Source: Deltaproteobacteria bacterium (GTDB lineage: Bacteria > Myxococcota_A > UBA9160 > UBA4427). Taken from it: a stretch of DNA of 64,000 nt. Where the stretch lies: positions 1,375-65,374 of the forward strand of contig JAFDDH010000010.1 in NCBI GenBank assembly GCA_019310975.1. The letters are read 5' to 3'. Below, one piece after another: positions 11,457 to 38,346 of the stretch. The notes beneath the pieces were generated by a model, which was not told the DNA's origin, made no database searches, and saw nothing but the letters and a program-made list of their open reading frames with translations. Both the position numbers and the translations under genes were made by a program. Positions within the stretch are counted from its first letter, which is position 1. Each line of letters starts with the position of its first letter.

Positions 11457-11689
11457 GAATCCCCAGGTCGAGCCGGGCCCCCTGGGGCCGATTCGCTGCC
11501 TCCTGCACCGCGGCCGCGCGGTGGCGCTCCGGCGGCGTCGAGTCTACGCGATCCGGGCGCACTCGTACGGATGATTCAGATTGCGTCGCGAGGGGCGGCC
11601 AGGGTCCGATGCTACGTTGATCGTTTGCCATGCTTACCAGAGGGACCCGGTCATCGGTGGAGGCGGTGCGCACGCGGGAGCGCCGAGTG

Positions 11690-22020: not shown

Positions 22021-22254
22021 TCAGTTGCAGCCGCAGCCCCCGCCCCCGCCCCCGCCAGGCGGCAGCGAGCCCTCTTTGCTGAAGCGGATGTGATTCTGAA
22101 GTGCCGCGGCCTGCGGGTCGGGATCCCAGAGCATGTCGGCCCTCGCCAGTGTGTCCCGCTCCCAGGGCTTCACGGCCACGCAGCCCGACGTCGCGCCGAT
22201 CAGTGCGATCCCGATCGCGACTGCGATCCAGTCTCCCCTGCGAGCGCGCATCAT
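22021..22254 (-). CDS. DUF4266-like small lipoprotein with Gly7-CGCN C-terminus
   Basis: ATG 22254 overlaps the tlpA-like stop (ATGA). Lipobox IGATSGC. Ends ...PPGGGGGGGCGCN. Its stop abuts the start of the next gene. Confidence 0.75.
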   Translation of the reverse strand: MMRARRGDWIAVAIGIALIGATSGCVAVKPWERDTLARADMLWDPDPQAAALQNHIRFSKEGSLPPGGGGGGGCGCN

Positions 22255-22875: not shown

Positions 22876-25257
22876 TCAGGAGGCCGCGTCGCGAGTCGTC
22901 GGCGGCGCTGCGGCCCGGATGGAATCCACGACGACGCCGATGCTCAGCAGCTCCGGTAGCACCTGGGGCCGCTCTGGGGAGCTCGGGTCGTAGACGAGGT
23001 AGAGGGGCACGCCCGCGCGTCCATGGCGGGCGAGCTCCGCGCGGATCGTCTCGTCACGCTGGGTCCAGTCGGCCCTGAGGACGCGTACGTTCAGTCGCTC
23101 GAGCTCGGCGAGCACGCGCGAGTCTCGCAGCACGACAGTCTCGTTCAGCTTGCACGTGATGCACCACTCCGCCGAGAAGGCCACCAGCACCGGCCGACCT
23201 TCCTCGAGTGCCGCGCTGACCTGCCCGGGACTCCACGCCGCCCAGCCCTCGGCACTCTCGCCCGGCAGCGGTGGTGTCGCGGTCGCGAGTCGCGCGCGAA
23301 CCAGATCGAGCCCCACCAGGGCGAGCAGAACCAGCGCGATTCCGGCGCTGGTGCGCAGCCAGGTGCGCTCCCCGTGCTGGAGCATTCCGTAGATCCACAA
23401 TCCGAAGGCGATCGCGACCAGCAGCGCCAGCAGGGTCGTCATGCCTTCGGTGCCCGAGAGCCCCCCGGCGATCCAGAGCAACCACACCACCGTGGCCAGC
23501 AGCGCAAAGCCCAGCCCGGACCGCAGCTTGAGCATCCACGCTCCCGAGCGCGGCACAAAGCGCGACCAGGCGGGCACCCAACTGATGAGCACGAAGGGCG
23601 CTGCGAGGCCGGCACCGATACAGAGAAAGATCAGGACGATGGTGAGTGCCGAGCCCGCGAACGCGAAGCCCACGGCCGTCCCCAGGAAGGGCGCCGAGCA
23701 GGGCGTTGCGAGCACGACTGCCAATAGGCCCTCGAAGAAGCTGCGCCGCGTGCCCGTGGTCTGTTCGCCCAGGCGCGCGGCTCCCCCCGCGTCGAAGCTG
23801 ATCTCGAAGACGCCGAAGAGATTGAGTGCGAAGGTGACCAGCACGATCGAGATGGCAGACACGAAGAGCGGCGATTGGAATTGGAACCCCCAGCCCACCT
23901 GGCCGCCGGCTGCCCGCAGCGCGAGCACCGCTCCCGCCAGCACAGCCATGGAAATGAGGATCCCGAGCGCGTAGGCGCCACCGCTCCGGCGCAGCGCGCT
24001 CCGATCGCGGCCGGCCATCTCGGCGATGCCGAAGACCTTGATGGCCAGGACCGGCAGCACGCAGGGCATCAGGTTCAGGATCAGCCCGCCGAGCAGCGCG
24101 AGCAGGATGACCTCTAGCAGACTCGGGCTGGAGTGGATCGCCACCCCCCCGGCCGGGTCTTCGTGCACGCCCGGAAGCCAGTGCTCTCCGAGCAGCGTGA
24201 CCTGCGCGCTCGCGTCGATGGATGGCAGGGGCAGGTCCACGTCCACGTGGGCGCGACGGCCGGAGAGGTCCTGCAGGACGAGCACGCCGCGCAGACGCGG
24301 CTCGGATGTCGCGGCACTCTCGTCTGCTCCTTCCCAGTCTTCGCTCACCTCGGCCTCGAAGCCGGCGAGCGAATGGTGCGGATCGTCTCTGGTGGGCAAC
24401 GCGGCTGCCGGCTCGGCACGGATCGGGAAAGTGGCGGCGGGAAAGAAGACGACGCCCTCGGCTGCGATTCGCCAGGGCACGCACTCGCCCGGCGTCGTGC
24501 AGGCGCGTGCTCCGATGGCGGCGTGAAAGGTCGATCCCGGTCGCAGCGCACTACGGTCGTAGAGCGATTCGAGCTCGACGCCGAGGCTCGCCGGTGCCAC
24601 AGGTACCCGCGCCTCGAAGTCGTCGAAGATCCGGCTGAGGCTGGCGTTGTCGGGTGAATCGACCAGCGCGGCGGTCAGCGAGCGCTCCAGCTCGATGCGT
24701 GCGGGAATGCACTCGCGCTGGCAGATCAGCAGGTCGATGTCGACGGCGATGCGGTGCTCGCGATCGAATTCCGGTGCGAGCGTGACATCGCTGGCCAGCA
24801 ACACACGCCCCTCGTAGCCGAAGGTGACGAAGAGGCCGTCGGCCTCGCTGAAGCTCTGCGGAGCGGGCCAGCGCAGCGCTCCCGCCTCGCCGCCTTCGAC
24901 CCTCCAATGCACCCGTGTCGGCAGCCCCGTGTCGCCAGAATTGCGCCAGTAGAGGTGCCAGCCCGGGTCGAGATCGAAGAGGACGCCGACGCGAACCAAG
25001 TCGGGCGTGGCCCGGCCCGCATCCACGAGAAGGTGCGCCCGCAACCGGGCCCCGCCCTCGTAATGACCGCTCTCACCGCTCGCTCCGGCGGGAAGCGCAC
25101 GCAGCACGCTCGAGGAAGCAGTGGCCGCCCGGAGCTGCGATCCGCCCAGAGCGAAGAGCCATGCAACCAGGAAGACGAGTATGCGGCCGGCTCGCCCTGC
25201 GGCGGCCGGGCCGGGCTTCCTCTCTTCTTCGTCCGCTTCTTCCGGTATCCGCTTCAT
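22876..25257 (-). CDS. dsbD: thiol:disulfide interchange protein DsbD/ScsB-type (N-terminal DsbD-alpha-like, CcdA-like TM core, C-terminal thioredoxin)
   Basis: ATG 25257 (MKRIPEE). Motifs: GWHLYWRNSGDTGLPT and ICQRECIP (alpha domain), LMPCVLPVL and ATPCSAPFLG (TM cysteines), AEWCITCK (thioredoxin). Confidence 0.9.
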   Translation of the reverse strand: MKRIPEEADEEERKPGPAAAGRAGRILVFLVAWLFALGGSQLRAATASSSVLRALPAGASGESGHYEGGARLRAHLLVDAGRATPDLVRVGVLFDLDPGWHLYWRNSGDTGLPTRVHWRVEGGEAGALRWPAPQSFSEADGLFVTFGYEGRVLLASDVTLAPEFDREHRIAVDIDLLICQRECIPARIELERSLTAALVDSPDNASLSRIFDDFEARVPVAPASLGVELESLYDRSALRPGSTFHAAIGARACTTPGECVPWRIAAEGVVFFPAATFPIRAEPAAALPTRDDPHHSLAGFEAEVSEDWEGADESAATSEPRLRGVLVLQDLSGRRAHVDVDLPLPSIDASAQVTLLGEHWLPGVHEDPAGGVAIHSSPSLLEVILLALLGGLILNLMPCVLPVLAIKVFGIAEMAGRDRSALRRSGGAYALGILISMAVLAGAVLALRAAGGQVGWGFQFQSPLFVSAISIVLVTFALNLFGVFEISFDAGGAARLGEQTTGTRRSFFEGLLAVVLATPCSAPFLGTAVGFAFAGSALTIVLIFLCIGAGLAAPFVLISWVPAWSRFVPRSGAWMLKLRSGLGFALLATVVWLLWIAGGLSGTEGMTTLLALLVAIAFGLWIYGMLQHGERTWLRTSAGIALVLLALVGLDLVRARLATATPPLPGESAEGWAAWSPGQVSAALEEGRPVLVAFSAEWCITCKLNETVVLRDSRVLAELERLNVRVLRADWTQRDETIRAELARHGRAGVPLYLVYDPSSPERPQVLPELLSIGVVVDSIRAAAPPTTRDAAS

Positions 25258-25649
25258 GGTTTTGGGGGGGCGTCCAGCATCGTCGATCGCATGGTCGCAC
25301 GTCTCGAAGTATCGACGCCCATCGGTCTGAACATGTGATCTTTGACCATACGCACCTCGCCCGGCCATGGATACAAGCGCGCCGTGGATCCGATCGGTCT
25401 CTGCGTTGCCGACGACGTGCCGATGGGTTGCGCATGAAACGCTTGCTCGAGAGGCGAAGCTGAATCGAAGCGACCGGAAGTGTAGGAGAAAGACCCAAGA
25501 GTGTGACACAACACACCGATACGAGGCGTGCTGACCCGATATCTCTCTCGGACCGCGACGGCACCGACCTCGGTTTCGGCGTGGACGGCGTCGATGCTGC
25601 GAGGCGGGGCCCGGGTCGAGCCGTTGGTGCGAAGCGGAGTGAATAGAAT

Positions 25650-26909
25650 ATGATGGCAAGCCCCGACCGGATCCCGGCGCCCTTGCGCCGTCTCGGCGGC
25701 CTCGAGAGATTCACGTACATGCTCGTCCTGGCGGCTGCCCTCGCGGTGCTCCCGCTGGTGGCGAGCGCAGGCTCGCAGGAGCGCGCCAAGCGCATCCACG
25801 ATCGCCTCGTGGGCATCCCGCCGGATGCCCCCACGCTCGCGACCATGGTGTCGATCCTCGACACCCAGACCCCCGAAGAGGGGCCCAAGGCCGCGGCCCT
25901 CTTCGCCCTCGAGCATCCCGTCTTCTACACGTCGACGCTGAAGAACTTCGCGGCGCCGTGGACGAATGTCGATCAGACGGTCTTCGTGCCGCTGAACGAC
26001 TACTCGGCCACCGTGATCGGGATGATTCGCGACGAGGTGCCCTTCAATACGGTGCTCAGCGCGGATCTCGTCTATCACGGTGCCAACGGAGTCGTGGCGA
26101 ATCGCTACTCGCATGACAACAACCACCACTACGAGCAGCTCGAGGCCGACCATATCGACCTCAGCGATACCAGCGACTTCATCGGGCGGCCCCAATCGAC
26201 GCTGCCCGGTAGCCAGCTCTCCGGCGGCAACACCGCCGGCGTGATCACCACGCGTGCGGCGGGCGAGGCGTACTTCAGTGCCGGCACCAATCGCCGCATG
26301 TGGCGTTTTACCGCAATGAACTTTCTGTGCCGAGATATGGAGGACCTGCTCGACACGAGCTTGACCTCGGATTGGATCCGGCAGGACGTGACGAGGAGCC
26401 CGGGTGGGGATAGCTCGATCTTCCTGAACTCCTGCATCGGTTGCCACAACGGAATGGATCCGATGGCGGGCGCGTACGCGTACTTCGAGTGGGTGCCCGG
26501 GGACGACGCCGACGCCGACGACAACGGCCGTGTGATCCACACCCTGGGCCAGGTCCAGCCCAAGTACCTCATCAACGGCAACATCTTTCCCTTCGGCTAC
26601 GTGACGACCAGCAATCGTTGGGAGAATCGCTGGCTCGAAGGCAAGAACTCGGTGATGGGCTGGCCGGCCGCACCGAAGGAGGGCTTCGGCGCGAAGGGGC
26701 TCGGCGTGGCGGTGGGCAATAGCGATGCGTTCGCGACCTGCCAGGTCGAGAAGGTCTTCAAGCAGATCTGCTTTCGCGAGGACTCCAGCGACCCGGACCG
26801 CACCCTGATCAGCACAGTTACCGAGAATTTCAAGGCCAACGACTACAACCTGAAGCACGTCTTTGCCGAGGTCGCCGCCTATTGCACGCAGGCCGACGCC
26901 ACCAATTGA
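25650..26909 (+). CDS. exported protein of unknown function with single CxxCH motif (DUF1588/PSCyt-like signature)
   Basis: Hydrophobic leader MLVLAAALAVLPLVASA. CIGCH at 26433-26447 followed by GMDPMAG. Protein-like composition, in contrast to antisense ORF 25254..27020. Confidence 0.75.
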   Translation: MMASPDRIPAPLRRLGGLERFTYMLVLAAALAVLPLVASAGSQERAKRIHDRLVGIPPDAPTLATMVSILDTQTPEEGPKAAALFALEHPVFYTSTLKNFAAPWTNVDQTVFVPLNDYSATVIGMIRDEVPFNTVLSADLVYHGANGVVANRYSHDNNHHYEQLEADHIDLSDTSDFIGRPQSTLPGSQLSGGNTAGVITTRAAGEAYFSAGTNRRMWRFTAMNFLCRDMEDLLDTSLTSDWIRQDVTRSPGGDSSIFLNSCIGCHNGMDPMAGAYAYFEWVPGDDADADDNGRVIHTLGQVQPKYLINGNIFPFGYVTTSNRWENRWLEGKNSVMGWPAAPKEGFGAKGLGVAVGNSDAFATCQVEKVFKQICFREDSSDPDRTLISTVTENFKANDYNLKHVFAEVAAYCTQADATN

Positions 26910-27018
26910 TGATCGTCGAGCGACGGCGATGCAGCCGTGCGGGGATCGACTACCGCGGAGGGGTATTCGCGGGGATCGCGGAATGATGGAACCAACCGAA
27001 CCAAAGGGACACTCCAGC

Positions 27019-29178
27019 ATGAAGATCCGAAAGGCCAGTGGACTCGTACTGCTGCTGCTCTCGGTGGGCTTGCTGGCCGCCTGCGGTGATTACTCGGGCG
27101 GCGACAGGCCTCCGGCGGATCCCTTCGCGACGACCGGCGTCCTGCCGACCGGCATCACCGAGGCGGAGAATATTCAATTCTTCAGCGAGACCGTCTGGCC
27201 GATCGTGAATAGCGAGACCTGCGGCGACTGCCACACCCAGTCGGGCGGGAAGCCCTTCCCCTTCGCAGACCCGAATCTCACCTTCGCGTACCGGACCATC
27301 GTCGACAACGGCAAGGTGAACTTCGGTACGCCCTCCGATTCACGCATCGTCGTGAAAGTCGTCGGTGGACACCACTGCTGGAGCGGTGATTGCTCGTCGG
27401 ACGCGATTGATCTCTTGTTGGCCATGGAAGATTGGATCGCCCGCATCGAGGCAGCGGGCGGCAGCTCTTCGGGCGGTACCGAGGTGGGTGCCGGGACCCT
27501 GGTCAGTCAAACGGTCGACCCAAGGCCTGCTCCGCTTGGCGACGGCGTCGAGGACGAGGGGGGCGCGCGCGTCCTGAACAACCTCATCGCCTTCTACCGA
27601 TTCGACGAGTACGACCCGGACACAATCATCACGACCGCCCAGGATACCAGCGGCGTCCCGCCCGCCATGGACATCGAGTTGGAGGCGGGCGTCGCCCTGA
27701 TGGAGTCCTACGGGGTCGACTTCTCGGCCGGACGTGCGCGGGCTGAGACCAATGGAAGCCGGAAGCTCTACGACCACATCGGCCATCCGGACCTGGGCAC
27801 GGGTCAGTTCAGTATCGAGATGTGGATGGCCCCTGCGAATACGAACCAGGAAGCGCGAATGTTTGCCTTCTCGGACAACTTCCAGCTGATTCAGCAAGAG
27901 TATCAATATCAGTTTCGTGTGCGCAGTCTCGCGCCGAACATCCCGGGCAACGGCTCGGTCGGCACGCTGACGACATACGACCAGGACCGCGATCTGCAAG
28001 CCGGTCTGCAGCACACCGTTGTCACCTACGACCGATTCAACGGCATGCGGGTCTTCGTGAACGGCGAGTACACCGACGATGTGGATGCAAATGGGGGCGG
28101 TCTGCTCTGGAACTGGCGCGAGGATAGGCGGTTGGAGCTCGGCTCCACGGGTGCCGACGGCTGGTATGGCAAGATCAAGATGCTGGCCATCTACAAGCAG
28201 GTGCTCAGCCTCGAGCAGATTCGCCAGAACTGGCAGGCAGGTGTCGGTCTTCGGCTGACTCTCCGATTCGACATCAGTCAATTTGGTGGACCGGGCAGCG
28301 CGATCGAGATCTCGCTCTCGCAGATCGACGATCAGAGCTATCTGCTCTGCCAGCCGACGGTGATCACCGACAATCTCGGCATGAAGATCAGGGGTCTTCG
28401 GATCAAGGCGAACGGCACGGAGACGGGTGTGGGCCAGGCATTCTCACGCCTGAACACGATCGTCACGAGCAACCGCCAGCAGATCTCACCGCATTGCACG
28501 ATGTTGGCGAACGACTCGGGACCGGAGAACTTCCAGCTTGCCTTCGAGGGGCTCTCGGGCTGGATCGATCCGATTCCCGACGTGGATTGGGGCGAGATCC
28601 AGTACGACTACACGGGCGTCGAGATGCCGCCGACCAACGGCATGCGCGACTTCGCGCGGGTCAACGAGACGATGGCGCTGCTCACGAATGTGCCCACCGC
28701 CGATTCCGTCATCGAGGCGACCTATTTGACGCTGGTCCAGCAGCTTCCGGGCAGCGCAGATCTCAGATCCTTCGTGAGCTCCAACCAGGTCGGCATCTCG
28801 AAGTTGGGCTTCTCGTACTGCAACGAGTTGGTAGAAGATCCGGCTGGGCGGGATGTCTTCTTTGATCAGGGCCCGGCGCCGATCGAGTGGAGCCAGCTGC
28901 CCGCGGACGCCTTCCTGAACGACGTCAGCGAGGACAGGCGATTGCGTGTCACGGGTCCGCTGGTGGACAAGATGGTGGGCGATCTCAGCGTACAACCGGC
29001 CCCGGGTGACGTGGAGAATAGGCTCCTCACACTGATGGACGATCTGATGGTCGCCAAGGCGGCGGATTGCACGGACTGCGGTGGAGGCTGCAACGCGTGC
29101 ACCGACCAGGCGACCAAGGACATCGTGAAGGGTGTCTGCACCGCGGTTCTGGCCAGCGGCGCAGCCCAGATGCATTAG
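27019..29178 (+). CDS. lipoprotein with PSCyt-like CxxCH N-domain, LamG (concanavalin-like) domain and Cys-rich C-terminus
   Basis: ATG 27019 (MKIRKASGLVLLLLSVGLLAAC is a lipobox leader). CGDCH at 27220-27234. LamG-like FSIEMWMAP...GMRVFVNGEY. CTDCGGGCNAC near the end. Confidence 0.8.
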   Translation: MKIRKASGLVLLLLSVGLLAACGDYSGGDRPPADPFATTGVLPTGITEAENIQFFSETVWPIVNSETCGDCHTQSGGKPFPFADPNLTFAYRTIVDNGKVNFGTPSDSRIVVKVVGGHHCWSGDCSSDAIDLLLAMEDWIARIEAAGGSSSGGTEVGAGTLVSQTVDPRPAPLGDGVEDEGGARVLNNLIAFYRFDEYDPDTIITTAQDTSGVPPAMDIELEAGVALMESYGVDFSAGRARAETNGSRKLYDHIGHPDLGTGQFSIEMWMAPANTNQEARMFAFSDNFQLIQQEYQYQFRVRSLAPNIPGNGSVGTLTTYDQDRDLQAGLQHTVVTYDRFNGMRVFVNGEYTDDVDANGGGLLWNWREDRRLELGSTGADGWYGKIKMLAIYKQVLSLEQIRQNWQAGVGLRLTLRFDISQFGGPGSAIEISLSQIDDQSYLLCQPTVITDNLGMKIRGLRIKANGTETGVGQAFSRLNTIVTSNRQQISPHCTMLANDSGPENFQLAFEGLSGWIDPIPDVDWGEIQYDYTGVEMPPTNGMRDFARVNETMALLTNVPTADSVIEATYLTLVQQLPGSADLRSFVSSNQVGISKLGFSYCNELVEDPAGRDVFFDQGPAPIEWSQLPADAFLNDVSEDRRLRVTGPLVDKMVGDLSVQPAPGDVENRLLTLMDDLMVAKAADCTDCGGGCNACTDQATKDIVKGVCTAVLASGAAQMH

Positions 29179-29199
29179 GCAGGGACGGAGGCCTACGAG

Positions 29200-30744
29200 A
29201 TGACGCGACGAAAGAGCGACCCGACTGTGCTTGCGCCCCTCCGCCACAACAGCCATCGGCGACCGGTGACGCGGCGCGAGTTCCTCGCCCAGGGATTCCT
29301 GACGGGGTCCGCGTATGTGGCCATGCCGGCCGTCCTCTCGCTGCTCACACAGCCGAGGTCGGCGCTGGCGGCGATGGATTGTGCGCTCGGCGGCGGAACA
29401 GGGAATATCCCCTTCCTCTGCTTTGATCTGGCGGGCGGTGCGAACATTGCCGGCTCGAACGCAATGGTGGGGACCACCGCACAGATGGCACCGCTCTCGC
29501 TGAGCGGTTACCGGATGCTCGGTCTGCCGGAGGAGCTGACCCCCGGCCGCATTGTCGGCCCCGCCATCAACGATGAATTCGGTCTCAAATTCCATCCCGA
29601 TAGTGCGATGCTACGCGGGATGCTGGCCCGGACTTCGGCCACTACGCGCGCGAATGTCAACGGTGTCGTGATCGCGGCACGCTCCGCGAACGACACGGGA
29701 AACAATCCCCACAACCCGGTCTACGGCATCAACAAGGCCGGTGCGAGCGGCGGCCTGCTCGAGCTCGTGGGTACGGAGGCCTCCGATTCGGGTGGCAATT
29801 CGTTGGCGCCGATGGACATGATCGACCCCTCCAAGCGGCCGACGAAGATCGATCGTCCCTCGGATGCGCGCGGTCTCGTCGATACCGGCGAAATGGTCAA
29901 TATGCTCGGCACCACGGGTGCGGGCGACGTCATGCAGGCGATCGAGGACATCAGCAAGGACAAGATCGCGCTGATGGCCGAGGAGGAGGCCGTATCCGAC
30001 GTCGTGACCTGTGCGTACGAGCAGAGCCGGCAGCTGATCGTGGACTTCGGCGATCCCGACGCCCTCGACCCTCTGCTCGATAAGGACATTGCGGCAGGCG
30101 ATCCGCTGGACCCGAGCCTGATCCCGATCTTCGCCGATGCGAACGAAGTGAACGGCACCAGCCACTACCGCAAGACCGCCTCGGTGATGAAGCTCGTCGT
30201 CGAGGGCAAGGCGGGTGCCGGCACGATCGAGTTCGGCGGCTATGACTATCACAACAGCACCCGCACCACCGGCGAGCAGCGCGATGAGCTGGCCGGCGAA
30301 TCCATCGGGGCCGCCTTGGAGTTCGCGGCGCGGCGGAACCAGGATCTGATGATCTATGTCTTCAGCGACGGCTCCGTATTCTCGAACGGGCAGGTGGATA
30401 ATAATGTTGGCAAGGGCGTCTGGACGGGCGACAACTCGAGCACGGCGGCGTCCCTGATCCTCGTCTACGGCAAGGATGGGCGACCGCCCCTGCGCAACGC
30501 CGACAATCAGATCGGCATCTACCGAGACAGCGGCTCAGTCGAGACCTCGCATTCTCTTCCCTCGGTGCAGATCTCGAACTCGCCCGAGCTGCTCGCCGAG
30601 GCGATCGTGCTCAACTACCTCGCTCTCCACGGTCGCGAGGGTGATTATGCGAGTGTGATGAACAACGCACCCAAGCTGGCCGGCAGCGCTGCAGAGCTCG
30701 ATCAGCTGATCGGCTTCACGAATATTCGCGCGCCGGGCGTATAG
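29200..30744 (+). CDS. Tat-exported DUF1501-like (sulfatase/alkaline-phosphatase-fold-like) protein
   Basis: GGAGG RBS. Twin-arginine leader TRREFLAQGFLTGSAYVAMPA. FGGYDYHN resembles the GGWDTH motif of DUF1501. Confidence 0.8.
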   Translation: MTRRKSDPTVLAPLRHNSHRRPVTRREFLAQGFLTGSAYVAMPAVLSLLTQPRSALAAMDCALGGGTGNIPFLCFDLAGGANIAGSNAMVGTTAQMAPLSLSGYRMLGLPEELTPGRIVGPAINDEFGLKFHPDSAMLRGMLARTSATTRANVNGVVIAARSANDTGNNPHNPVYGINKAGASGGLLELVGTEASDSGGNSLAPMDMIDPSKRPTKIDRPSDARGLVDTGEMVNMLGTTGAGDVMQAIEDISKDKIALMAEEEAVSDVVTCAYEQSRQLIVDFGDPDALDPLLDKDIAAGDPLDPSLIPIFADANEVNGTSHYRKTASVMKLVVEGKAGAGTIEFGGYDYHNSTRTTGEQRDELAGESIGAALEFAARRNQDLMIYVFSDGSVFSNGQVDNNVGKGVWTGDNSSTAASLILVYGKDGRPPLRNADNQIGIYRDSGSVETSHSLPSVQISNSPELLAEAIVLNYLALHGREGDYASVMNNAPKLAGSAAELDQLIGFTNIRAPGV

Positions 30745-30870
30745 CCCGGGTGCGGACACAGCGTCGACGACCGGGGGGATGTCGGTGGCACGGAGCGTGA
30801 TCAAGACCAGTCCTCCCCGATCCGATGAGGGTCATGCCAGAGCATGGCGGCCAGGGAAGTGGGAGCGAAA

Positions 30871-31335
30871 ATGAACGACAAGAGTCCCGGCGCACCCTCC
30901 TGGCTCTTCTCATTCGTGGACCTCGCGTTCCTGATGCTGATCGCGATGACCCAGCTCGCCCCCGACCCGAGCCGGCAGGCCCCGGATCTCGGCGAGATGG
31001 TCGTGCCGCGCATCTCCGAGAAGTCGTCGGGCGAGATGCCGGGCGACGCGGCTCGCGCCTGGCAGCTGCGCATCCACCCGCCCTCCGAGCCGGCCGCCGA
31101 GCGCTTCGAGCTCGTCCTCATCGACCCGACGGCTGCGCGGAGCTCCGAGTTCTACACCGAGGTGGGTGGCCTGCGTGAGCGGCTCGCCGAGCTGGACCGT
31201 GCATCGGGTCCGCGACCGCTGCTCGCTCCGCACGAGGATGCGCGCAGCCAGGACCTGCTGGACGCTGCGGCGCTGCTCGAAGAGTACTGGCCGGGAAGGC
31301 GGCGCGTGACGATCGCCCGCGTCTTCGACAGCTGA
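30871..31335 (+). CDS. divergent ExbD/TolR-family protein
   Basis: ATG 30871 with a GGGAG RBS. Single TM segment SWLFSFVDLAFLMLIAMT carrying the conserved Asp (30919-30921). Short periplasmic domain. Confidence 0.7.
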   Translation: MNDKSPGAPSWLFSFVDLAFLMLIAMTQLAPDPSRQAPDLGEMVVPRISEKSSGEMPGDAARAWQLRIHPPSEPAAERFELVLIDPTAARSSEFYTEVGGLRERLAELDRASGPRPLLAPHEDARSQDLLDAAALLEEYWPGRRRVTIARVFDS

Positions 31336-31336
31336 G

Positions 31337-32671
31337 ATGGGTGCCTGGCGGGTCGATCAGCACTACGGGGTGGGTGTGGCCAACGTGCGCCTCCACGCCG
31401 AGCCCTATCTACATCCAGAACGCCGCTGGACGTTGCGCGAGGGCCTCGACGCCCTGCGCGAGGATCTCCACGATCGGGACCGCAGTCTGCGTCGCGCCGT
31501 CGGCGTGCTGCCCGGAATCCTGCTCGGCACGGTCGTGCTGCTGAGCTTCGTCCTCACCGTCGTGCGCGACCGCAGCGACGACACCGGAGTCGAGCTGGTG
31601 CTGTGGACGAGTGCACCGCCGCAGCCCGAGGCGATACCCGAGCAGGCGCCGCCACCGATCCCGATCCCGAAGCCGGTTGAGCGAGCCGAGCCCGTAGAGC
31701 CCCCGCCCCTCAAGCCGGTCGCCAAGCCGATCGCCAAACCGCCGCCGCGCCCCGAGCCGATTCGCATCGCCGAGGCGCCGCCGAGGCCCGCCCCGCCGCC
31801 GCGCGCGGAGCGCCTGCGCAGGCCGCCGCCAAGGCCCGCACAGCAGCCCAGCGTGCGGATCGATTCCCTGGCGCGTGCGCCGGTGTCGCCGGCGCCGTCA
31901 CGCCCGACGCGCGGCCAGGCGCCGAAGCCACCCGCCGAGCGGTCGCAGATGGAGGTGCTCCCGATCGCGAATCGCACCCCACCGCGCGTCGAGGCGTCCT
32001 CACCGGAGCCGCGGCGCTTCGCGGCGGTGCGTCCACCGCCCTCCCGAAAAAACTCGGCGCCTGCCGTGGCGCCGGCGATCGCCGCCCTGCCGCGCTCTCC
32101 GCAGCCTGCGAACCGGGCGCCCTCGGAACGTGGGAAGAAACCAGCAGCCGTGTCTCGCACTTCGAGAGGTGCGCCTCCCAGGCCCGAGCTTGCGGCCCCA
32201 GCCAGTATCGCGACGGATCGAGCGTCCCCCGATCGACCCACGCGGAGTGCCCGAAATGCCCCTACCAAGGTGGCCCGCGGCAGTGGCCCACGGCCCGACG
32301 TGCGCATGGCCGGCGTCTCGCACACGACGCAGTCGCCGGCGTCGCCCTCGATCGCCCCGATGCGCTCCGGCGTCGCCCCGCTTCGCCCCAGCGCCTCGAG
32401 GCCTGTCCGCGAGCAGCCCGGCCTGGCGGGTGTACCCCTGGGATCGCTCGCCAGCTGTCTGTCGGATCGGCAGGAGGATGCCCTCAAGCAGCGCGTCGTG
32501 GCTGCCGTTAGGACGCAGGAGCAGTGTGTAAGCCGCGCCGGAAGCTACCGATTCATCGAGACAAAGAACCTGAATTCATTCCTCATGTGGGTCGATCGGG
32601 CGCCGACGCGCACGCATGGGGACCGCTGCGACGAGCTCAGGCTCGCACTCGAGTGCCTCGCGTCGCAGTGA
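31337..32671 (+). CDS. TonB/TolA-like anchor: one N-terminal TM, long Pro-rich spacer, novel 4-Cys C-terminal domain
   Basis: ATG lies 1 nt after the exbD-like stop. TM segment VLPGILLGTVVLLSFVLTVV. (P-x)n tract PPPIPIPKPVERAEPVEPPPLKPVAKPIAKPPPRPEP. Caveat: Pro-rich frames arise easily in GC-rich DNA. Confidence 0.6.
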   Translation: MGAWRVDQHYGVGVANVRLHAEPYLHPERRWTLREGLDALREDLHDRDRSLRRAVGVLPGILLGTVVLLSFVLTVVRDRSDDTGVELVLWTSAPPQPEAIPEQAPPPIPIPKPVERAEPVEPPPLKPVAKPIAKPPPRPEPIRIAEAPPRPAPPPRAERLRRPPPRPAQQPSVRIDSLARAPVSPAPSRPTRGQAPKPPAERSQMEVLPIANRTPPRVEASSPEPRRFAAVRPPPSRKNSAPAVAPAIAALPRSPQPANRAPSERGKKPAAVSRTSRGAPPRPELAAPASIATDRASPDRPTRSARNAPTKVARGSGPRPDVRMAGVSHTTQSPASPSIAPMRSGVAPLRPSASRPVREQPGLAGVPLGSLASCLSDRQEDALKQRVVAAVRTQEQCVSRAGSYRFIETKNLNSFLMWVDRAPTRTHGDRCDELRLALECLASQ

Positions 32672-32691
32672 ATCAAGGAGTCGCACGCCGG

Positions 32692-34389
32692 ATGGAGAAT
32701 CAGCCTCGACACGAGAGCGTCGCGTGCAAGCTCACGACGATCGGCGCGTTCATCGCGACCACACTCGTCGCTGGAATCGCGAGCGCACAGATCGCCGCCA
32801 TCGATACCGCCCGCTGGGATGGCTACCTCGACTACGCGTACGTCTACGCCTCAGCCAACGCGGACGCATTGCGGACGCGAATCGACGATTACGGCCGCGA
32901 GGCCGGCATGACGCTCGACGAGTACGTGACGGTGGTATCCACGGACGTGCGCGCCAAGCCCGAGGCGGTCGACGACGCCCTTCGCCGCCGCCTGGCCATC
33001 GCCAACCTCTTGCAATACCTGGCGACGCGCGAGCCGCAGGCGCTGGACCGCAGCGTCGAGCTCATCAACGAGTTCGAGGAGCAGCAGGGCCGGCACCAGA
33101 ATCTCTATTGGTACCACTACATCCACTCGAATCGCGCGCTCGAGAAGGGCAGCGGCAGCGAGTTCACACGGCACACCCTCCAGCTCTGGTTGCAGGTCGT
33201 GGTGCCGCTCGAGAGCCCGTACGAGACCCTGCAGGCGCTCTCACTCAGTCAGTCGGCCAATTCCGGCTTCGTCTCGGCCCTGCCCTACGTGTACGAGAAC
33301 GTGGCGCGCATCGTGTTGATCCGCAGCCAGGAGATGGGCATCCGCCGCGATCTCGATCCCCTCTCCGCCATCGTACGAATGTTGGCCCAGGGACGTGTCG
33401 GCGCACACCCGGATGTGATCCCCTACGAGGCCTCATCGAAGCAGTATCTGGATCGCATCATCGCGCGCCTGGATGGGCCCGAGTCCGACGCCGGCAGCCT
33501 GACCTTCACCCTCGTACTTTTCGAGGCCGGCAAGTACCACGACCATGCGCGCTCCCTGCTCGCCAGCGAGGGACTCTCGAAGGCGACCATCGAGGCCATC
33601 GGCGTATCGAGCGGCGCCTACCAGACGGCGCTGAATCTCGCGCATACGCTGCAGGGCCAGAGCGCCGTCTACGCCAGGGTGCTGCGTCAGCTCGGTGAGG
33701 TATGGGCCGCCAAGCAGCGTCTCGGTGTCGACCCTTACGTGGAGGCGCCCTTCACCATCGATGGGGCGATGAGGGTGTGGCGCGAGCTCTACAGCGTGCA
33801 CGCCGAGGGCGAATGGAAGCAGGTCGGCTTCCGCAACACCGGTTACGAGTCCTATGTATTGTCGATGCAGACGCTCTGGCAGGAGATCCAGGAGTCGAGC
33901 CTCAACGCCGCCGACTACTACCTGACGCGCAGCATCACCGATCCAGCTCGCAGCGACGAGCACATCCGCTCCGCGGCGCGGACTTATCTGCGCTATCTGG
34001 CATTTTTCGACCAGCATTCGACCGAGCAGGCCGCCGAATTCGTGCCCGACGCCGCCTACTTCGCCGCCTACGAGGCCGCCAAGGGCTACGGTGACGCGTT
34101 CCTCGCCTACGCGGGCGGGCAGACCACGGCCACCGAGGTGGATACCGCGGTGGAGCGCTACCTGATGGCACTCGGCATCTTCCCCTTTGATCGCCATCTC
34201 TGGCCCGGCTATGCGTCGGCACTCGAGCGCCAGGGCCGAGCAAACCAATACCTCGCCAAGGTGCGACCGATTGCCGAGTCGGTGGCGCGCTCGCGCCACG
34301 TCGACGCGTGGATTCAGGCCGGCGAGCCCGGCGGCCCGTGCGGAGATCGAACGTCGGATCCTGCAGCTTTCGGGCAAGCTTCCCGCTGA
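32692..34389 (+). CDS. large exported helical-repeat protein of unknown function (apparently frameshifted near 34330)
   Basis: ATG 32692 with an AAGGAG RBS. Signal-like TTIGAFIATTLVAGIASAQ. Helix-rich composition. The last ~20 codons (GPCGDRTSDPAAFGQASR) look non-native. Confidence 0.7.
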   Translation: MENQPRHESVACKLTTIGAFIATTLVAGIASAQIAAIDTARWDGYLDYAYVYASANADALRTRIDDYGREAGMTLDEYVTVVSTDVRAKPEAVDDALRRRLAIANLLQYLATREPQALDRSVELINEFEEQQGRHQNLYWYHYIHSNRALEKGSGSEFTRHTLQLWLQVVVPLESPYETLQALSLSQSANSGFVSALPYVYENVARIVLIRSQEMGIRRDLDPLSAIVRMLAQGRVGAHPDVIPYEASSKQYLDRIIARLDGPESDAGSLTFTLVLFEAGKYHDHARSLLASEGLSKATIEAIGVSSGAYQTALNLAHTLQGQSAVYARVLRQLGEVWAAKQRLGVDPYVEAPFTIDGAMRVWRELYSVHAEGEWKQVGFRNTGYESYVLSMQTLWQEIQESSLNAADYYLTRSITDPARSDEHIRSAARTYLRYLAFFDQHSTEQAAEFVPDAAYFAAYEAAKGYGDAFLAYAGGQTTATEVDTAVERYLMALGIFPFDRHLWPGYASALERQGRANQYLAKVRPIAESVARSRHVDAWIQAGEPGGPCGDRTSDPAAFGQASR

Positions 34390-34438
34390 CGACCCGGCGC
34401 CGGCGTCGATCGCGGATGACGCCGGAGAACGCGAGAGC

Positions 34439-34645
34439 GTGGTCGAGCGGGCGGAGCGGCATCGGAAGATCGAAGAGGCCAAGCTGCTGCTCGACAAGCT
34501 CGACAAGCAGCTCGAGGCCCGCAAGCGGGCATTGCCCCTCTATCAGGAGACCCTCCAGACCGATGGCCTGATCGACGAGCTGCGCGCCCAGCGCGATCAC
34601 CCGGCCCACACGCTGCTGCGCCGCTTCTATTACGAGAAGCGCTAA
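34439..34645 (+). CDS. coiled-coil segment, either the frameshifted 3' end of 32692-34389 or a 68-aa stand-alone ORF
   Basis: The +1 frame shows good coding character from about 34331 (ARAEIERRILQLSGKLPADD...KIEEAKLLLDKLDKQLEARKRALPLYQE...RRFYYEKR). The first usable start in that frame is GTG 34439. Confidence 0.4.
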   Translation: MVERAERHRKIEEAKLLLDKLDKQLEARKRALPLYQETLQTDGLIDELRAQRDHPAHTLLRRFYYEKR

Positions 34646-35247
34646 TGAGGACGTCCCCCATGAACCGAGAGAACGAAGAGCCGACCCTGGAGATGTGCAC
34701 GCTGCGAGCACGAAGAAGCCGCCTTGGCCTCTCTGCGCTGCTCGTGGTCGCGGCGCTGCTCGCCACCGCGTGTTCGGGCGTGCGCCCCGCCTATCAGACC
34801 ACCAACCAGCGCGAGCTCTCCGTCGAGGAGGCGCCGCTCGGCGGCGAGGCGCTCAGCCAGCGCAAGCAGGATCTGGAGCGCGCGCTCGGGGATATGGCGG
34901 CCTTCCATGCCACGATGGCGAGCCTCATCGATCGTCGCGATGGCCGGGGGCTCTCGGCCTTCGACGATTTCGTGGCCGCCTATATGGGCGAGCACCTGGA
35001 TCCGCTGCTGGCCGGCGAATGGCAGAGCAGTCATCCCGAGGTGATGGCCGTGGACGCCAATCTGCGCTTCACCAAGGCCGACGTGCTGATCCAGATGCGC
35101 TACCCGCGCCGCGTGCAGCGAGTCATCGACGATATCGAGCGCCGCTATGAGAGTCACGGGAATATGGTCGTCGACTACCCGTTGGGTGACCAGAACTCGA
35201 TCACCGACGCACTCGAGATCCTCAAGAACCGGAAGTGGGAGGGGTAG
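34645..35247 (+). CDS. lipoprotein of unknown function
   Basis: TAATG stop/start overlap at 34645. Lipobox LLATAC. Alternative start ATG 34693. Confidence 0.7.
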   Translation: MRTSPMNRENEEPTLEMCTLRARRSRLGLSALLVVAALLATACSGVRPAYQTTNQRELSVEEAPLGGEALSQRKQDLERALGDMAAFHATMASLIDRRDGRGLSAFDDFVAAYMGEHLDPLLAGEWQSSHPEVMAVDANLRFTKADVLIQMRYPRRVQRVIDDIERRYESHGNMVVDYPLGDQNSITDALEILKNRKWEG

Positions 35248-35249
35248 AA

Positions 35250-35900
35250 ATGGAATCGGAATTCCTGAATGCGATCACGCCGAGCGACGACGTCCTCACC
35301 TGGCTCGTCACACTCTTCGCGCTCGTCGCGGTATGGTTGCCCTTCTTTCGCGGCTTGAAGCTCTCCCTGCAGGCGTGGACGGCCACACGCCACTGCACGT
35401 CGGGCGAGCTGCGCAAGGGGAGGGCGGATACACGCGGGACCGACGTCGAGCCCATCGCGCTCTTGATGATGCGGGTCCTGAAGAAGGCGTTGAACGAGAA
35501 CGAGGCGGAGCGCCACCCCCGCGACTTCATATTCGATGCCACGCGGCAGTATGTGATCAACGAGTACGATGACCACTACACACGGCTGATCGGCATGTAT
35601 GCGAGCCTGCTTCCGCCGATCGGGTTCATTGGGACGACCGGCGGCATGTTGATCCTCTTCCTCTCGATGCACTTTGACAACTCGTCCCTGGAGCTCGGCG
35701 CCCTCGCCATCGCGCTGACATCGAGCATCTTCGCCCTGGTCGGCTACTCGGTGCTCGAGGGTCTGAAGATCCGCCTATATGGACGCTTGCTCCACTGTCT
35801 GCGCGACGTCCATGACCTCTACCAGGAGGCCGACCGCAAGCGCACAGGTCGGCAGTCGGATGGGGCCGCAGGCATGACGCCGGAGCCGGGTCTGGCTTAG
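35250..35900 (+). CDS. MotA/TolQ/ExbB-family proton-channel protein
   Basis: ATG 35250 after a GGGAGGGG RBS. LPPIGFIGTTGGMLILF and ALAIALTSSIFALVGYSVL match the TolQ/ExbB TM2-TM3 signatures. Confidence 0.8.
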   Translation: MESEFLNAITPSDDVLTWLVTLFALVAVWLPFFRGLKLSLQAWTATRHCTSGELRKGRADTRGTDVEPIALLMMRVLKKALNENEAERHPRDFIFDATRQYVINEYDDHYTRLIGMYASLLPPIGFIGTTGGMLILFLSMHFDNSSLELGALAIALTSSIFALVGYSVLEGLKIRLYGRLLHCLRDVHDLYQEADRKRTGRQSDGAAGMTPEPGLA

Positions 35901-35999
35901 CTCCGTCTCCCGATGGGCCGGGTCGCGCCGCCCGAATTGGGGCATACTCCGCTTCGAGGATCCGGGATGTTCCGGTGCCGACCGAGGAGTGGAAGAGTC

Positions 36000-36350
36000 A
36001 TGAGCAAGTCGATCCAGCTCGTCACCAGCACGATGATCATCGTGGGCCTGCTGCTCGCCGGTGTGCCGGCCGCGGCCATCGAGTCCAGCGTCTCGCCGGC
36101 ACTGCACGACCCGGCCGAGCCCGATGGCATTACGTGGTACGAGGTGGTCCCCCCCTACGCGATGAATGCGCGCGATACGGTCGATCTGGAGGAGCACGGC
36201 GGCTGGTCGGGCGAGTACGTATTCGGCATGACGAAGGGATTGATGCGGTCGACGCTCGTGCCGGCCCTGAAGCCGGTCTTCCTGATCTTCACCGTGCCCT
36301 TGGATCTCGTCTTCCTGCCCTTTGCGGCCATCGGCGGGTTCTTCCGCTGA
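36000..36350 (+). CDS. small exported/membrane protein of unknown function
   Basis: ATG 36000 with a GGAG-rich RBS. N-terminal signal/TM segment IIVGLLLAGVPAAAIE and C-terminal TM segment LIFTVPLDLVFLPFAAIGGFF. Confidence 0.6.
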   Translation: MSKSIQLVTSTMIIVGLLLAGVPAAAIESSVSPALHDPAEPDGITWYEVVPPYAMNARDTVDLEEHGGWSGEYVFGMTKGLMRSTLVPALKPVFLIFTVPLDLVFLPFAAIGGFFR

Positions 36351-36351
36351 C

Positions 36352-37728
36352 TCAACGCGGCGAGGTCACCACCACGGCCGCGTAGCCGCCTGGCTGCAGG
36401 GTGACGGTCTTTGCGATGCTGTCGGCGCCGCCGCTGCCAAGCATCACCTCTATTTCGTGTTGGCCGGCGGGTAGCCGTTCGCGGAAGACGAAGACCTGCT
36501 CGGGCAGGTGCATCCAGGAGCGGGTATCCGGCTTGTCCATCGCCACCATGACCGCCTCCGTGAGGAGCGCGAGCGCCCAGCCCAATCCCGCGCTCTGCTG
36601 GTTGCCGGCCTGGCGGACGCCCTCGGAGGCGGCGGCGCGGACGATCATTCGTGAGATGGCCGCGCCGATGATCCGGGGCTTGATCTCTTCGTACTCGCGT
36701 GTGATTTCGGCGCCGAGGTCGGAGGCCAGCTCGAGCTGTGCGGGGCGGTCGTCAATGCGCAGCCGGACCTTGTCGTAGACACTGCCGTTCGGGACGAGCT
36801 CCGGGTAGACGACGAATTTCATCGCCGTGTGGCCGAGCACTTCGGGGTTGCCGCTGATCCATGCGCCGGCCATGCCCACCGCCGCACCGATGGGTATGCG
36901 TTTCGGGACCTTGAAGGGGACGCGCCCGACGCTCACGACCACGAGCAGGTCGGCAGCACCCTCCCTTTCCTCTTCGGCCGCGCCTTGCGCCAACACCTGA
37001 GCGAGCATCTTGCCTCGAAACGAGGTCATCGGGGCGAGCCGCCGAATCGGTGCACCCAACGATTCGAAACGCTGCGCCTGCAGGGCCTCGTCGTAGTAGC
37101 GAATGGCACCCTGCCATTCGCCGAGCATTTCGAAGGTGAAGCCCGCCAGGTAGGATCCGATGGCGACGTGAACCTCCTCGATGCCGCTGTTCTCGAGGTA
37201 GGTCTGCATGACGGTGAAGCGGCGCGCCTCGACCCGCGAGCCGCGCAGATCCCCGTTGGCGAGGAAGTTCGCCATATTGAAGGAATTAAGGGAGAGCTTC
37301 TCGGTGGGTGTGGCCTGGTAGAGGGTCGCGCTGTCGCTGTAGACGTAGCGGCCGATATTGCCGGCCGTGTCGTCCGTCAGGTCGAGCACCTGGAGCTCGC
37401 GATCGGCGACGATGAAGTCCCGCGAGCTCCCGGGGTAGTCGAAGAGCGCCTGCTCGAGTGTGCCCCGCTCGAGCAGGCCGAGCGCCGTCTCGGATTCGAT
37501 CTTTTCGGGCATCTGCCCACGCTGGCCGACACCCATGATCTTCTCGACCTTGGTGATGCTTGCCTCGAAGTCGCCGGCCGTCGTCGTCTCCATGACCTTG
37601 GCCATCTTGTCCGAGTAGGTCGCACAACCCGACGAGAAGGGCGCCATCAGCGCGAGCAATACGAGAAGAGCACGCACGCGTGCTCCCCCACCTCGCAGCG
37701 GTGTGGTCAGGCCGGAGCGGCTGGACAT
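36352..37728 (-). CDS. large lipoprotein of unknown function (partner of LpoB-like gene)
   Basis: ATG 37728. Lipobox APFSSGC. 458 aa with protein-like composition. Separated by 9 nt from the upstream gene. Confidence 0.8.
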   Translation of the reverse strand: MSSRSGLTTPLRGGGARVRALLVLLALMAPFSSGCATYSDKMAKVMETTTAGDFEASITKVEKIMGVGQRGQMPEKIESETALGLLERGTLEQALFDYPGSSRDFIVADRELQVLDLTDDTAGNIGRYVYSDSATLYQATPTEKLSLNSFNMANFLANGDLRGSRVEARRFTVMQTYLENSGIEEVHVAIGSYLAGFTFEMLGEWQGAIRYYDEALQAQRFESLGAPIRRLAPMTSFRGKMLAQVLAQGAAEEEREGAADLLVVVSVGRVPFKVPKRIPIGAAVGMAGAWISGNPEVLGHTAMKFVVYPELVPNGSVYDKVRLRIDDRPAQLELASDLGAEITREYEEIKPRIIGAAISRMIVRAAASEGVRQAGNQQSAGLGWALALLTEAVMVAMDKPDTRSWMHLPEQVFVFRERLPAGQHEIEVMLGSGGADSIAKTVTLQPGGYAAVVVTSPR

Positions 37729-37737
37729 TTCGCGGAT

Positions 37738-38346
37738 TCAGCCCTTGAGTGCCTTGCTGCGCGTGGTCTCGTGTTGGAACTTCACCAGACCCGTCTCGAG
37801 CTCGATGATCTGCAGGAAGAGTGTGTACTGGAGCCGGCGCGTTTTCTGCAGCCGCTCGTCCACGGCCGTGAGCTTGCCGGTGATGAAGTACTTCGCCCCG
37901 AGCTGGCGACCGAGCCGAGCCGCGCCACCGGGGTCGTAGATGGCGCCCTGCTGGATGCCGATCTCGCGGGCGAGCTCGGCCTGGCGGGAGCGGGCGACGA
38001 TCTGTACGTCACCGCTGTTGATCAGGCTGGTCTCGATGGACGAGAGCAGCGTCAGCATCTGATCCTCGAGATGCTCGGATGTCGCATTCTCGATCGGCCA
38101 GATCGCCATGATCGGCGGCCTGGCAGCCGTCTCCACCTCGCCCCTCCAGAAGCGGGAATCGAAGAGCGCGTCCAGATTGCGATCCACCAGGAAGGTGATG
38201 TCGCTGCGATCGAGCGTGGTGGACATGGCGGGTGCGTCCATGTTGGGGTTCTCGGTCCCCTCGCCGCCCCGCATTGCTCTGGGCGCGCAGGCCAGCGAGA
38301 AAGCGACGAGGACGAGGAGCATTGCCGTGAGGAGCTGCCGGATCAT
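37738..38346 (-). CDS. LpoB-like lipoprotein (penicillin-binding-protein activator family fold)
   Basis: Lipobox AFSLAC. IWPIENATSEHL...LGAKYFITGKL...LFLQIIELETGLV parallels E. coli LpoB (NSTN..., GAHYVLY, LQMQLMLVQTGEIIW). Confidence 0.8.
   Translation of the reverse strand: MIRQLLTAMLLVLVAFSLACAPRAMRGGEGTENPNMDAPAMSTTLDRSDITFLVDRNLDALFDSRFWRGEVETAARPPIMAIWPIENATSEHLEDQMLTLLSSIETSLINSGDVQIVARSRQAELAREIGIQQGAIYDPGGAARLGRQLGAKYFITGKLTAVDERLQKTRRLQYTLFLQIIELETGLVKFQHETTRSKALKG

Follow-up and report, generated by a model that had tools for sequence, protein, structure and literature searches.

A composite envelope locus in Myxococcota: a conserved trio of exported proteins beside a separable Tol/Ton-like gene cassette

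Introduction

The Agl-Glt gliding machinery of Myxococcus comprises a TolQR-like motor together with the TonB-like proteins GltG and GltJ. It is one of the described systems that come closest to the locus presented here, a run of co-directional genes at positions 25650-36350 of a 64,000-nt stretch of DNA from a member of the Myxococcota (GenBank assembly GCA_019310975.1, contig JAFDDH010000010.1). This whole stretch is hereafter called the window; coordinates refer to it unless they follow the number of an L-numbered locus (e.g. L001, L003, L004, L164), which denotes other DNA that carries related genes. Other points of comparison are the Tol-Pal and ExbB-ExbD-TonB systems, and the PSCyt genes of Planctomycetes and Verrucomicrobia, which are reported to occur in large numbers and in varied domain combinations and which, in Planctomycetes, form uncharacterised pairs with a partner gene (PMC5615132). 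Finally, in their account of a 'DsbD system', Meheust et al. (2021) demonstrated experimentally that DUF3570 is flavinylated by ApbE, and left the function of the system open (PMC8238504).

Here, we describe a locus of nine genes that is a composite of two modules: a trio of exported proteins (g1-g3, 25650-30744) and a Tol/Ton-like cassette (g4-g9, 30871-35900). Our preferred reading, to which we give an even chance, is that the trio is a redox-assisted module and the cassette an accessory machine that is functionally linked to it. Each kind of component is already known; it is the combination of a Tol/Ton-like transducer, PSCyt-like pairs, and the DsbD flavinylation system that is undescribed. 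A search of the literature on these domain combinations returned only the flavinylation paper, the description of PSCyt proteins in Verrucomicrobia, and an incidental mention, none of which describes the trio or the cassette. In the passages of PMC8238504 on DUF3570, DUF4266, and DsbD, no secretin, Tol/Ton-like cassette, or g1-g3 trio is mentioned beside the system. In Pfam and NCBIfam, we found no model for the trio-cassette combination, for the g3 family, or for the cassette proteins.

Results

Gene content of the locus

The run of plus-strand open reading frames (ORFs) from 25650 to 36350 was uninterrupted. In this genome of 66% G+C, every long ORF of the run had a G+C content at the third codon position (GC3) of 0.81-0.87, versus 0.42-0.61 at codon position 2. 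An original prediction, made from the letters of the window alone, had proposed a co-directional cluster of envelope genes here, and these coding signals indicate that the cluster is real. Gene boundaries were taken from public gene calls on two contigs: L001, whose proteins are 99.7-100% identical to those of the window over the shared genes, and L164, whose DNA is about 99% identical. The prediction had counted eleven genes. We counted nine, one of which is disrupted, with g6 and g7 being the two parts of a single broken gene; the higher count was wrong, since the eight gaps given with it themselves imply nine genes. Gaps of 109 (110 in the prediction), 21, 126, 1, 20, 2, and 99 nt were obtained again from the public gene calls. 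The divergent upstream gap of 392 nt was also right, with the DsbD start placed as in the Joint Genome Institute (JGI) gene call, as was the convergent gene lying 1 nt past the cluster: the stop of this 458-aa gene is at 36352, and the last stop of the cluster is at 36350. A scan of positions 25000-37000 revealed no intrinsic-terminator-like site or hairpin on the plus strand, which is compatible with co-transcription, and Rfam, tRNA, promoter, and terminator scans returned no plus-strand feature in the region.

The export and membrane signals claimed for the products were visible in the translations and were kept in the alignments. They consisted of a signal peptide in g1 and in g6, a lipobox (LAAC) in g2, a motif for twin-arginine translocation (Tat) in g3 (TRREFL, in which RR was invariant), a single membrane anchor in g4 and likewise in g5, and a non-canonical lipobox in g8, a probable lipoprotein. 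The hydrophobic segments of g9 suggest some three membrane helices, and a pair of them aligns with transmembrane segments TM2 and TM3 of TolQ/ExbB; g10 has two hydrophobic segments. When all ten ORFs were searched against Pfam and NCBIfam, the only matches were to LamG, weakly to PSD2, weakly to MotA_ExbB, and at chance level. The exported proteins, which had been put forward as unknown, indeed have no curated family of their own in these two collections.

A conserved trio of exported proteins

The g1 gene (25650..26909, +; GC3 0.87) encodes an exported protein of 419 aa with a CIGCH motif (C262/C265/H266) that was invariant in 25 sequences. In hidden Markov model (HMM) searches, 22 of the 25 family members matched PSD2 (DUF1585; best E 7e-6) and 9 matched PSCyt3 (DUF1588), mostly below threshold; the match of the window protein to PSD2 had an E-value of 0.021 and 15 bits (cut-off 25.8). 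These profiles suggest that g1 is distantly related to the planctomycete PSCyt3/PSD2 (DUF1588/DUF1585) proteins. The g2 gene (27019..29178, +) encodes a lipoprotein of 719 aa in which a CGDCH motif (C68/C71/H72), also invariant in 25 sequences, is combined with a LamG/ConA-like domain (Laminin_G_3, E 1e-15 in the window protein) that was present in all 25 relatives. Cytochrome_CBB3 matched 20 of the 25. Both g1 and g2 thus display, as far as motifs can tell, the sign of a c-type cytochrome, namely export combined with a conserved haem-attachment motif, CxxCH. In the g2 family, gammaproteobacterial members (about 830 aa) have two haem-motif modules in their consensus, and the window protein and its Myxococcota relatives (about 720 aa) have one.

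The third protein, encoded by g3 (29200..30744, +), is a Tat-exported protein of 514 aa from a large unnamed family of more than 7,600 homologue clusters; none of the 120 best listed clusters carried a Pfam domain. The label 'DUF1501-like' that it had been given was not recovered by Pfam or NCBIfam. Membership in DUF1501 (PF07394) was rejected at the sequence level, as none of 26 family members matched the HMM even at E-values up to 1, and DUF1552 was likewise matched by 0 of 26. When the AlphaFold2 model (mean pLDDT 73) was submitted to Foldseek, all 50 listed matches were alkaline phosphatases, sulfatases, iPGM, or MCR-1; these matches were weak (E about 3e-3 or weaker, template-modelling (TM) score about 0.25). 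The invariant features of the alignment were the RR of the Tat motif, D76, GGYDYH, and SDG. The last three are compatible with the D/DxH metal site of the alkaline-phosphatase superfamily, in which they may act as ligands, and the modelled fold of g3 is probably that of this superfamily.

The trio is similar, in the arrangement of its genes and the predicted location of its products, to the planctomycete pairs formed by a PSCyt protein and a Tat-exported partner (DUF1501 or DUF1552), which are its nearest described relatives. Like them, it includes a haem-motif protein with PSD2/PSCyt3-like regions (g1), a protein combining a haem motif with LamG (g2), and, alongside, a Tat-exported partner (g3) with a putative alkaline-phosphatase-superfamily fold. 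It differs from them in that g3 matches neither DUF1501 nor DUF1552, and in that the PSD2/PSCyt3 matches of g1 are mostly sub-threshold. Moreover, at the examined loci the three genes form one invariable unit, with about 50% identity across phyla.

A scan for the g3 family, using one genome per species, returned at least 586 matching stretches, from which 80 loci were kept. At all of these loci with upstream DNA, g2 and g3 were adjacent and co-directional, and g1, g2, and g3 were adjacent at all those with enough DNA. Carriers were metagenome-assembled genomes of Myxococcota and many Gammaproteobacteria, including cultured Marinobacter, Microbulbifer, Alteromonas, Gilvimarinus, and Ningiella, and it is between these two groups that the identity of about 50% is kept. 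No g3 homologue was found in a plasmid collection.

A divergent Tol/Ton-like cassette

The last gene of the cassette, g9 (35250..35900, +), encodes its channel subunit. PF01618 (MotA_ExbB) was the top Pfam match of the window protein, with 19.1 bits, below the gathering threshold of 22.9. The same model was the best match in six of six orthologues, over profile positions 6-102, and two of these exceeded the threshold (24.9 and 25.3 bits). An hhalign comparison of 43 g9 relatives with canonical ExbB/TolQ aligned 84 columns over TM2-TM3 (P 3e-4). g9 keeps the TM2 motif GxxGTxxG and the TM3 motif ALxxT/S, and its segments LLPPIGFIGTTGGM and LGALAIALTSSIFAL align to these signature segments. Judged by profiles and motifs, g9 is a divergent proton-channel subunit of the MotA/TolQ/ExbB family, and with it a Tol/Ton-type stator is present.

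The first gene, g4 (30871..31335, +), encodes a bitopic protein of 154 aa in which D17, located in the membrane helix FSFVDLAFLMLIA, was invariant in 33 sequences. Neither the window protein nor four orthologues matched the ExbD HMM (PF02472), and a search against PDB profiles returned nothing. Only 146 proteins came back from a profile search of 1.84 billion representatives, which thus stops short of canonical ExbD; among the remote relatives, 2 of 10 had sub-threshold ExbD matches (E 9e-4 and 0.011). The AlphaFold2 model, of low confidence (pLDDT 59.5), consists of a transmembrane helix followed by beta-beta-beta-alpha-beta-alpha, which is the TolR/ExbD topology. In a structure search, the TolR structures 2jwk and 5by4 ranked 16 and 25 (TM score about 0.5 by target; E 0.18-0.31, not significant), and the best matches were RNase-H-like folds (E 0.04). 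Taken together, g4 is quite probably a very divergent stator subunit of the ExbD/TolR type. As for the two motor families originally named, the ExbB-like assignment of g9 therefore stands, with PF01618 best in all six orthologues, and the ExbD-like assignment of g4 was not recovered by Pfam or NCBIfam.

The g5 gene (31337..32671, +) encodes an anchored protein of 444 aa. Its alignment revealed an anchor at about residues 65-85, a proline-rich region at about residues 95-350, and a C-terminal domain of 85 aa with four invariant cysteines. Pfam, NCBIfam, and PDB profiles yielded no match at all, TonB_C (PF03544) and TolA_III included, a homologue search with the C-terminal domain returned 32 unnamed fragments, and hhalign matched g5 weakly to the TonB-like protein of a gammaproteobacterial cassette described below (P about 4e-4 to 2e-3). 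The predicted architecture is TonB/TolA-like, with a membrane-anchored rod and a novel cysteine-rich head. The adjacent g6/7 gene (32692-34645) encodes a helical periplasmic protein with only generic TPR-like and coiled-coil matches among PDB profiles. The probable lipoprotein encoded by g8 (34660..35247, +; about 195 aa, called as a gene in L164) was kept in 65 of 80 cassette loci, with no Pfam or NCBIfam match and no OmpA-like domain. Pfam and NCBIfam include no dedicated family for any of the five cassette proteins (g4, g5, g6/7, g8, and g9).

Compared with Tol-Pal and ExbB-ExbD-TonB, the cassette is similar in its channel protein with TM2/TM3 motifs (g9), its bitopic protein with an invariant membrane aspartate (g4), and its anchored protein with a proline-rich spacer that would span the periplasm (g5). 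The likeness to Tol-Pal extends to a TPR/coiled-coil protein of the periplasm (g6/7, compare CpoB/YbgF) and a lipoprotein in the position of Pal (g8). Unlike in these systems, g4 lacks an ExbD HMM match, g5 lacks TonB_C and TolA_III, and g8 lacks an OmpA-like domain; there is no TolB propeller in the cassette and no TonB-dependent receptor nearby, and the gene order differs, with the ExbD-like gene at the start and the ExbB-like gene at the end. Thus, on sequence features, the cassette resembles Tol-Pal and Ton in architecture but contains no recognisable TolA/TonB, TolB, or Pal. The combination of a TolQ/TolR-type motor, TPR proteins, and TonB-like envelope proteins is also found in the Agl-Glt machinery of Myxococcus. 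The window cassette proteins had no Glt, Agl, or Nfs match in NCBIfam, their orthologues had no Glt or Agl match, and no other Glt components were found.

Linkage of the trio, the cassette, and redox genes

Cassette loci were collected by a metagenome scan seeded with g6/7, which yielded 80 loci, 30 of them informative (at least 8 kb of flank). The order g4-g5-g6/7-g8-g9 was constant across the 80 loci. Among the 30, the trio was present at 17, a secretin at 16, and DsbD-type redox genes at 19, with at least one of the three at 24. Their arrangement varied: (a) DsbD genes, then trio and cassette co-directional, as in the window; (b) cassette, secretin, inverted trio, and thioredoxin/DUF4266; (c) trio and inverted cassette; and (d) DsbD/DUF3570/ApbE, secretin, small outer-membrane protein (OMP), and cassette, with no trio within 8-10 kb. 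Gene order was thus conserved for g2-g3 in g3-seeded loci and for the cassette in its 80 loci, and the same g1-to-g9 order recurred in many loci.

The trio was almost always found beside genes for extracytoplasmic thiol/flavin electron transfer. In the window and in other Myxococcota, these form a DsbD set located divergently upstream; thioredoxin, ApbE, and DUF3570 flank the gammaproteobacterial trios. According to precomputed Pfam annotation of the identical JGI contig, the window encodes on the minus strand DsbD (22876-25257), a thioredoxin-like protein (22251-22775), DUF4266 (22021-22254), DUF3570 (20674-21987), and ApbE (19734-20642), which is exactly the gene set of the DsbD flavinylation-associated system as given in PMC8238504. 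Further upstream, on the plus strand, are genes for a small OMP-like protein (16653-17453; weak match to an Adr-like OMP model, 42 bits) and for a GspD-type secretin (17523-19748; type_II_gspD, 259 bits, below the cut-off of 351). An exact-sequence look-up of this secretin returned no record. In other lineages, this pair of genes directly adjoins the g4-g9 cassette. The conserved neighbourhood therefore reaches beyond the borders first drawn around the cluster, to the DsbD/thioredoxin/DUF4266/DUF3570/ApbE genes and the GspD-like secretin.

To count motors beside the trio, we used the 55 trio loci that had 6 kb or more of downstream sequence. A window-type cassette was present at 6, a different, TPR-plus-Tol-like cassette at 13, and TPR genes only at 5, and no motor was in range at 31. 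The 13 loci with the second cassette type are gammaproteobacterial. Downstream of their trio are genes for ApbE or a thioredoxin, followed by those for a pair of large TPR proteins, of which one resembles YbgF/CpoB, and then for a TolQ-like protein, two ExbD/TolR proteins, and a TonB-like protein. The latter, which ends the cassette (e.g. L016 10843-11820 (+)), carries an AgmX/PglI C-terminal domain (69 bits, cut-off 40), a further likeness to the Agl-Glt machinery beside the trio. In NCBIfam, the full-length models related to AgmX/PglI are those of GltG and GltJ, gliding proteins of Myxococcus.

Homology between the two kinds of motor cassette was examined by hhalign with shallow and then deeper alignments, and was supported only for g9 versus ExbB (P 3e-4). 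The comparisons of g5 with the TonB-like protein and of g6 with the TPR proteins were marginal, and g4 versus ExbD gave nothing beyond the membrane helix.

Nearly all gammaproteobacterial trio loci also have, divergently upstream, genes for a haem lipoprotein, two small OMPs, and a thioredoxin. The haem lipoprotein (about 900 aa, e.g. L058 3051-5780 (-)) has a PD40 propeller, a middle domain of the hydrazine-synthase-alpha type (E 2e-14), and two CxxCH motifs. The OMPs are an SH3-plus-beta-barrel protein and an OMP_myx_plus barrel (examples L066 2371-3159 (-) and L083 1945-2616 (-)).

We argue for functional coupling of the two modules because their proximity survives rearrangement and because a second kind of motor has been recruited in another phylum, an argument that falls short of proof. 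The same data can be read differently. The trio and the cassette could be functionally unrelated and stand together by inherited order in one Myxococcota lineage, the cassette being an envelope-integrity paralogue of Tol-Pal or serving the secretin alone. This would agree with the far greater rarity of the cassette (909 clusters in the g4 family versus more than 7,600 in the g3 family, a difference of at least eightfold), with the 31 of 55 trio loci that have no adjacent motor, with a close relative (L003, see below) that keeps the trio without the cassette, with several loci at which the cassette is next to a secretin and no trio lies within 8-10 kb, and with the DsbD synteny, which shows that the neighbourhood is vertically conserved. 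It does not readily account for a proximity that outlasts at least four different rearrangements, inversions included, for the different, canonical Tol-like cassette that in another phylum immediately follows the trio, or for the short gaps between g3, g4, and g5 with no plus-strand terminator. On balance, we regard mere neighbourhood as a rather unlikely explanation, though one with serious claims.

The secretin suggests another possibility, in which the cassette would act as a Tol/Ton-like complex that energises or anchors the orphan GspD-like secretin, in transport or in a pilus-like apparatus, with the trio as occasional cargo or neighbour. To our knowledge, no secretin is energised by a Tol/Ton-like complex. 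The gammaproteobacterial trio-plus-motor loci have no secretin within 10 kb, and no other type II secretion or pilus gene was noticed beside the window secretin in the ORF listing, the rest of the window not having been domain-searched. Nonetheless, a secretin accompanies the cassette at 16 of the 30 informative loci, and where the trio is absent it lies immediately beside g4 or g9 (L098-L100, L116, L120, L127, L128, L133, L136, L140, L144, and L150); the window protein is, in addition, GspD-like yet below the GspD equivalog cut-off. We consider a dedicated secretin energiser improbable.

Disruption and loss of cassette genes in close relatives

In the window, the reading frame of g6/7 switches at about 34333-34337, with a GC3 frame switch at about 34200-34350, and tblastn with the L004 protein split the gene into two frames. 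In eight of eight relatives, g6/7 is a single ORF of about 690-760 aa, of which a conserved segment of some 41 residues has no counterpart in the window; in L164 (99% identical), the gene is intact and encodes 690 aa. A blastn alignment with L164 (6530-6655) showed that the window gene lacks 119 nt, out of frame. The 7-nt repeat GGCGGCC borders the lost segment on both sides, and the junction is at 34330-34336. What is left is a truncated g6 (32692..34389, +), the 5' part of the gene, with a foreign out-of-frame tail of 22 residues, and g7 (34337..34645, +), a 3' remnant in the +1 frame that encodes the coiled-coil C-terminus; no start codon of its own was found for g7 near the junction. The 'about 650-aa helical protein' of the original prediction is thus not one open frame in the window. 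Given its sequence context, the loss looks less like a homopolymer sequencing error than like a deletion mediated by microhomology, and the GGCGGCC microhomology favours a real deletion over an assembly artefact. A programmed frameshift was also considered and was rejected, as the difference from the 99%-identical L164 is a 119-nt deletion and not a slippery site. Since g6/7 carries this out-of-frame deletion, the motor module is probably impaired in this genome.

Two other close relatives have lost more. L003 has identical flanks on both sides and only g1, g2, g3, and g10, with g4-g9 gone (L003 11539-12332). In L004, both motor subunits, g4 and g9, are gone (11545-11650 and 15682-15764), and g5, g6/7, g8, and g10 are kept. 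This pattern shows, as read from the aligned sequences, an accessory module under stepwise loss in the closest relatives of the window; the cassette is therefore dispensable for the trio in this lineage.

These losses bear on the organisation first proposed, namely one discrete operon encoding a single obligate machine driven by the proton-motive force, with all exported unknowns as structural parts of the motor. The genes are co-directional and tightly spaced, with no plus-strand terminators, and the g1-to-g9 order recurs in many loci, all of which such an operon would predict. The trio, however, is widespread and stable without a motor, the cassette is absent from L003, the rest persists in L004 after deletion of the motor subunits, the disrupted g6/7 of the window is intact in the sister strain L164, and the proposed coordinates do not bound the conserved neighbourhood. 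We therefore consider this version very unlikely. The idea of a discrete unit has to be given up, as the trio is motor-free at 31 of 55 loci, L003 and L004 lack all of g4-g9 or both motor subunits, respectively, and the cassette also occurs without the trio nearby. From the proposed proton-motive-force-driven envelope machine, what remains is that a Tol/Ton-like motor is present and plausibly linked to the exported unknowns; the motor is a separable accessory module.

The last gene of the run, g10 (36000..36350, +; called as a gene in L164), encodes a small membrane protein and is lineage-specific: of 163 loci, L003 and L004 alone have it, in each case adjacent to the trio, and it persists there even without the cassette. 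Downstream, at 36352-38346 (-), a convergent pair encodes the 458-aa lipoprotein-like protein, which belongs to no known family, and a lipoprotein resembling LpoB (62 bits, below the cut-off). This pair is kept with identical flanks in L003, L004, and L164, and appears unrelated to the cluster.

Discussion

In our preferred reading, a redox-assisted trio is functionally linked to an accessory Tol/Ton-like machine. The trio would be an ancient, fixed-order enzyme module of the periplasm or outer membrane, served by the DsbD/flavin conduit. By analogy with ExbBD and TolQR, protons would flow through g9/g4 by way of the invariant aspartate and drive conformational work, which g5 and g6/7 may carry across the periplasm to an outer-membrane partner. 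Nearby genes encode three candidates for this partner: the putative DUF3570 barrel, the GspD-like secretin, and the small OMP. The work done there would control whether the trio proteins are exported, displayed at the surface, or given access to a substrate.

Several observations weigh against this reading. Some cassette loci have no trio within 8 kb, and at 31 of the 55 trio loci that were informative, a motor is absent within 6-10 kb. Inherited gene order could explain much of the co-occurrence in Myxococcota. The cassettes of Myxococcota and Gammaproteobacteria are not detectably homologous except in the ExbB-like subunit, so the argument from an independent analogue is one of analogy. At the level of single proteins, the ExbD identity of g4 comes without an HMM match, and an unrelated fold was the best result of its structure search (E 0.04); g5 lacks both TonB_C and TolA domains; and the fold assignment of g3 is weak (TM score about 0.25).

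A broader proposal is that the trio, the DsbD/thioredoxin/DUF4266/DUF3570/ApbE conduit, and often a dedicated Tol/Ton-like motor, with an orphan secretin added in Myxococcota, form one undescribed envelope-spanning system. We put this forward only tentatively. If true, such a system would exist in hundreds of species of Myxococcota and Gammaproteobacteria, and thiol/flavin/haem electron transfer and proton-driven mechanical work would cooperate on an extracytoplasmic substrate or in the surface display of the haem lipoprotein. The presence of the trio in cultivable genera (Marinobacter, Microbulbifer, Alteromonas, and Gilvimarinus) should make knock-outs and localisation studies feasible.

The orphan DsbD/DUF3570/ApbE electron-transfer system would in this way gain candidate partners, and because the trio sits beside the DsbD/DUF3570/ApbE genes, it is a concrete candidate for the missing partner of that system. 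Moreover, the occurrence beside the trio of two kinds of Tol/Ton-like motor, one canonical and one too divergent for standard models, suggests a new class of clients for transducers of the proton-motive force.

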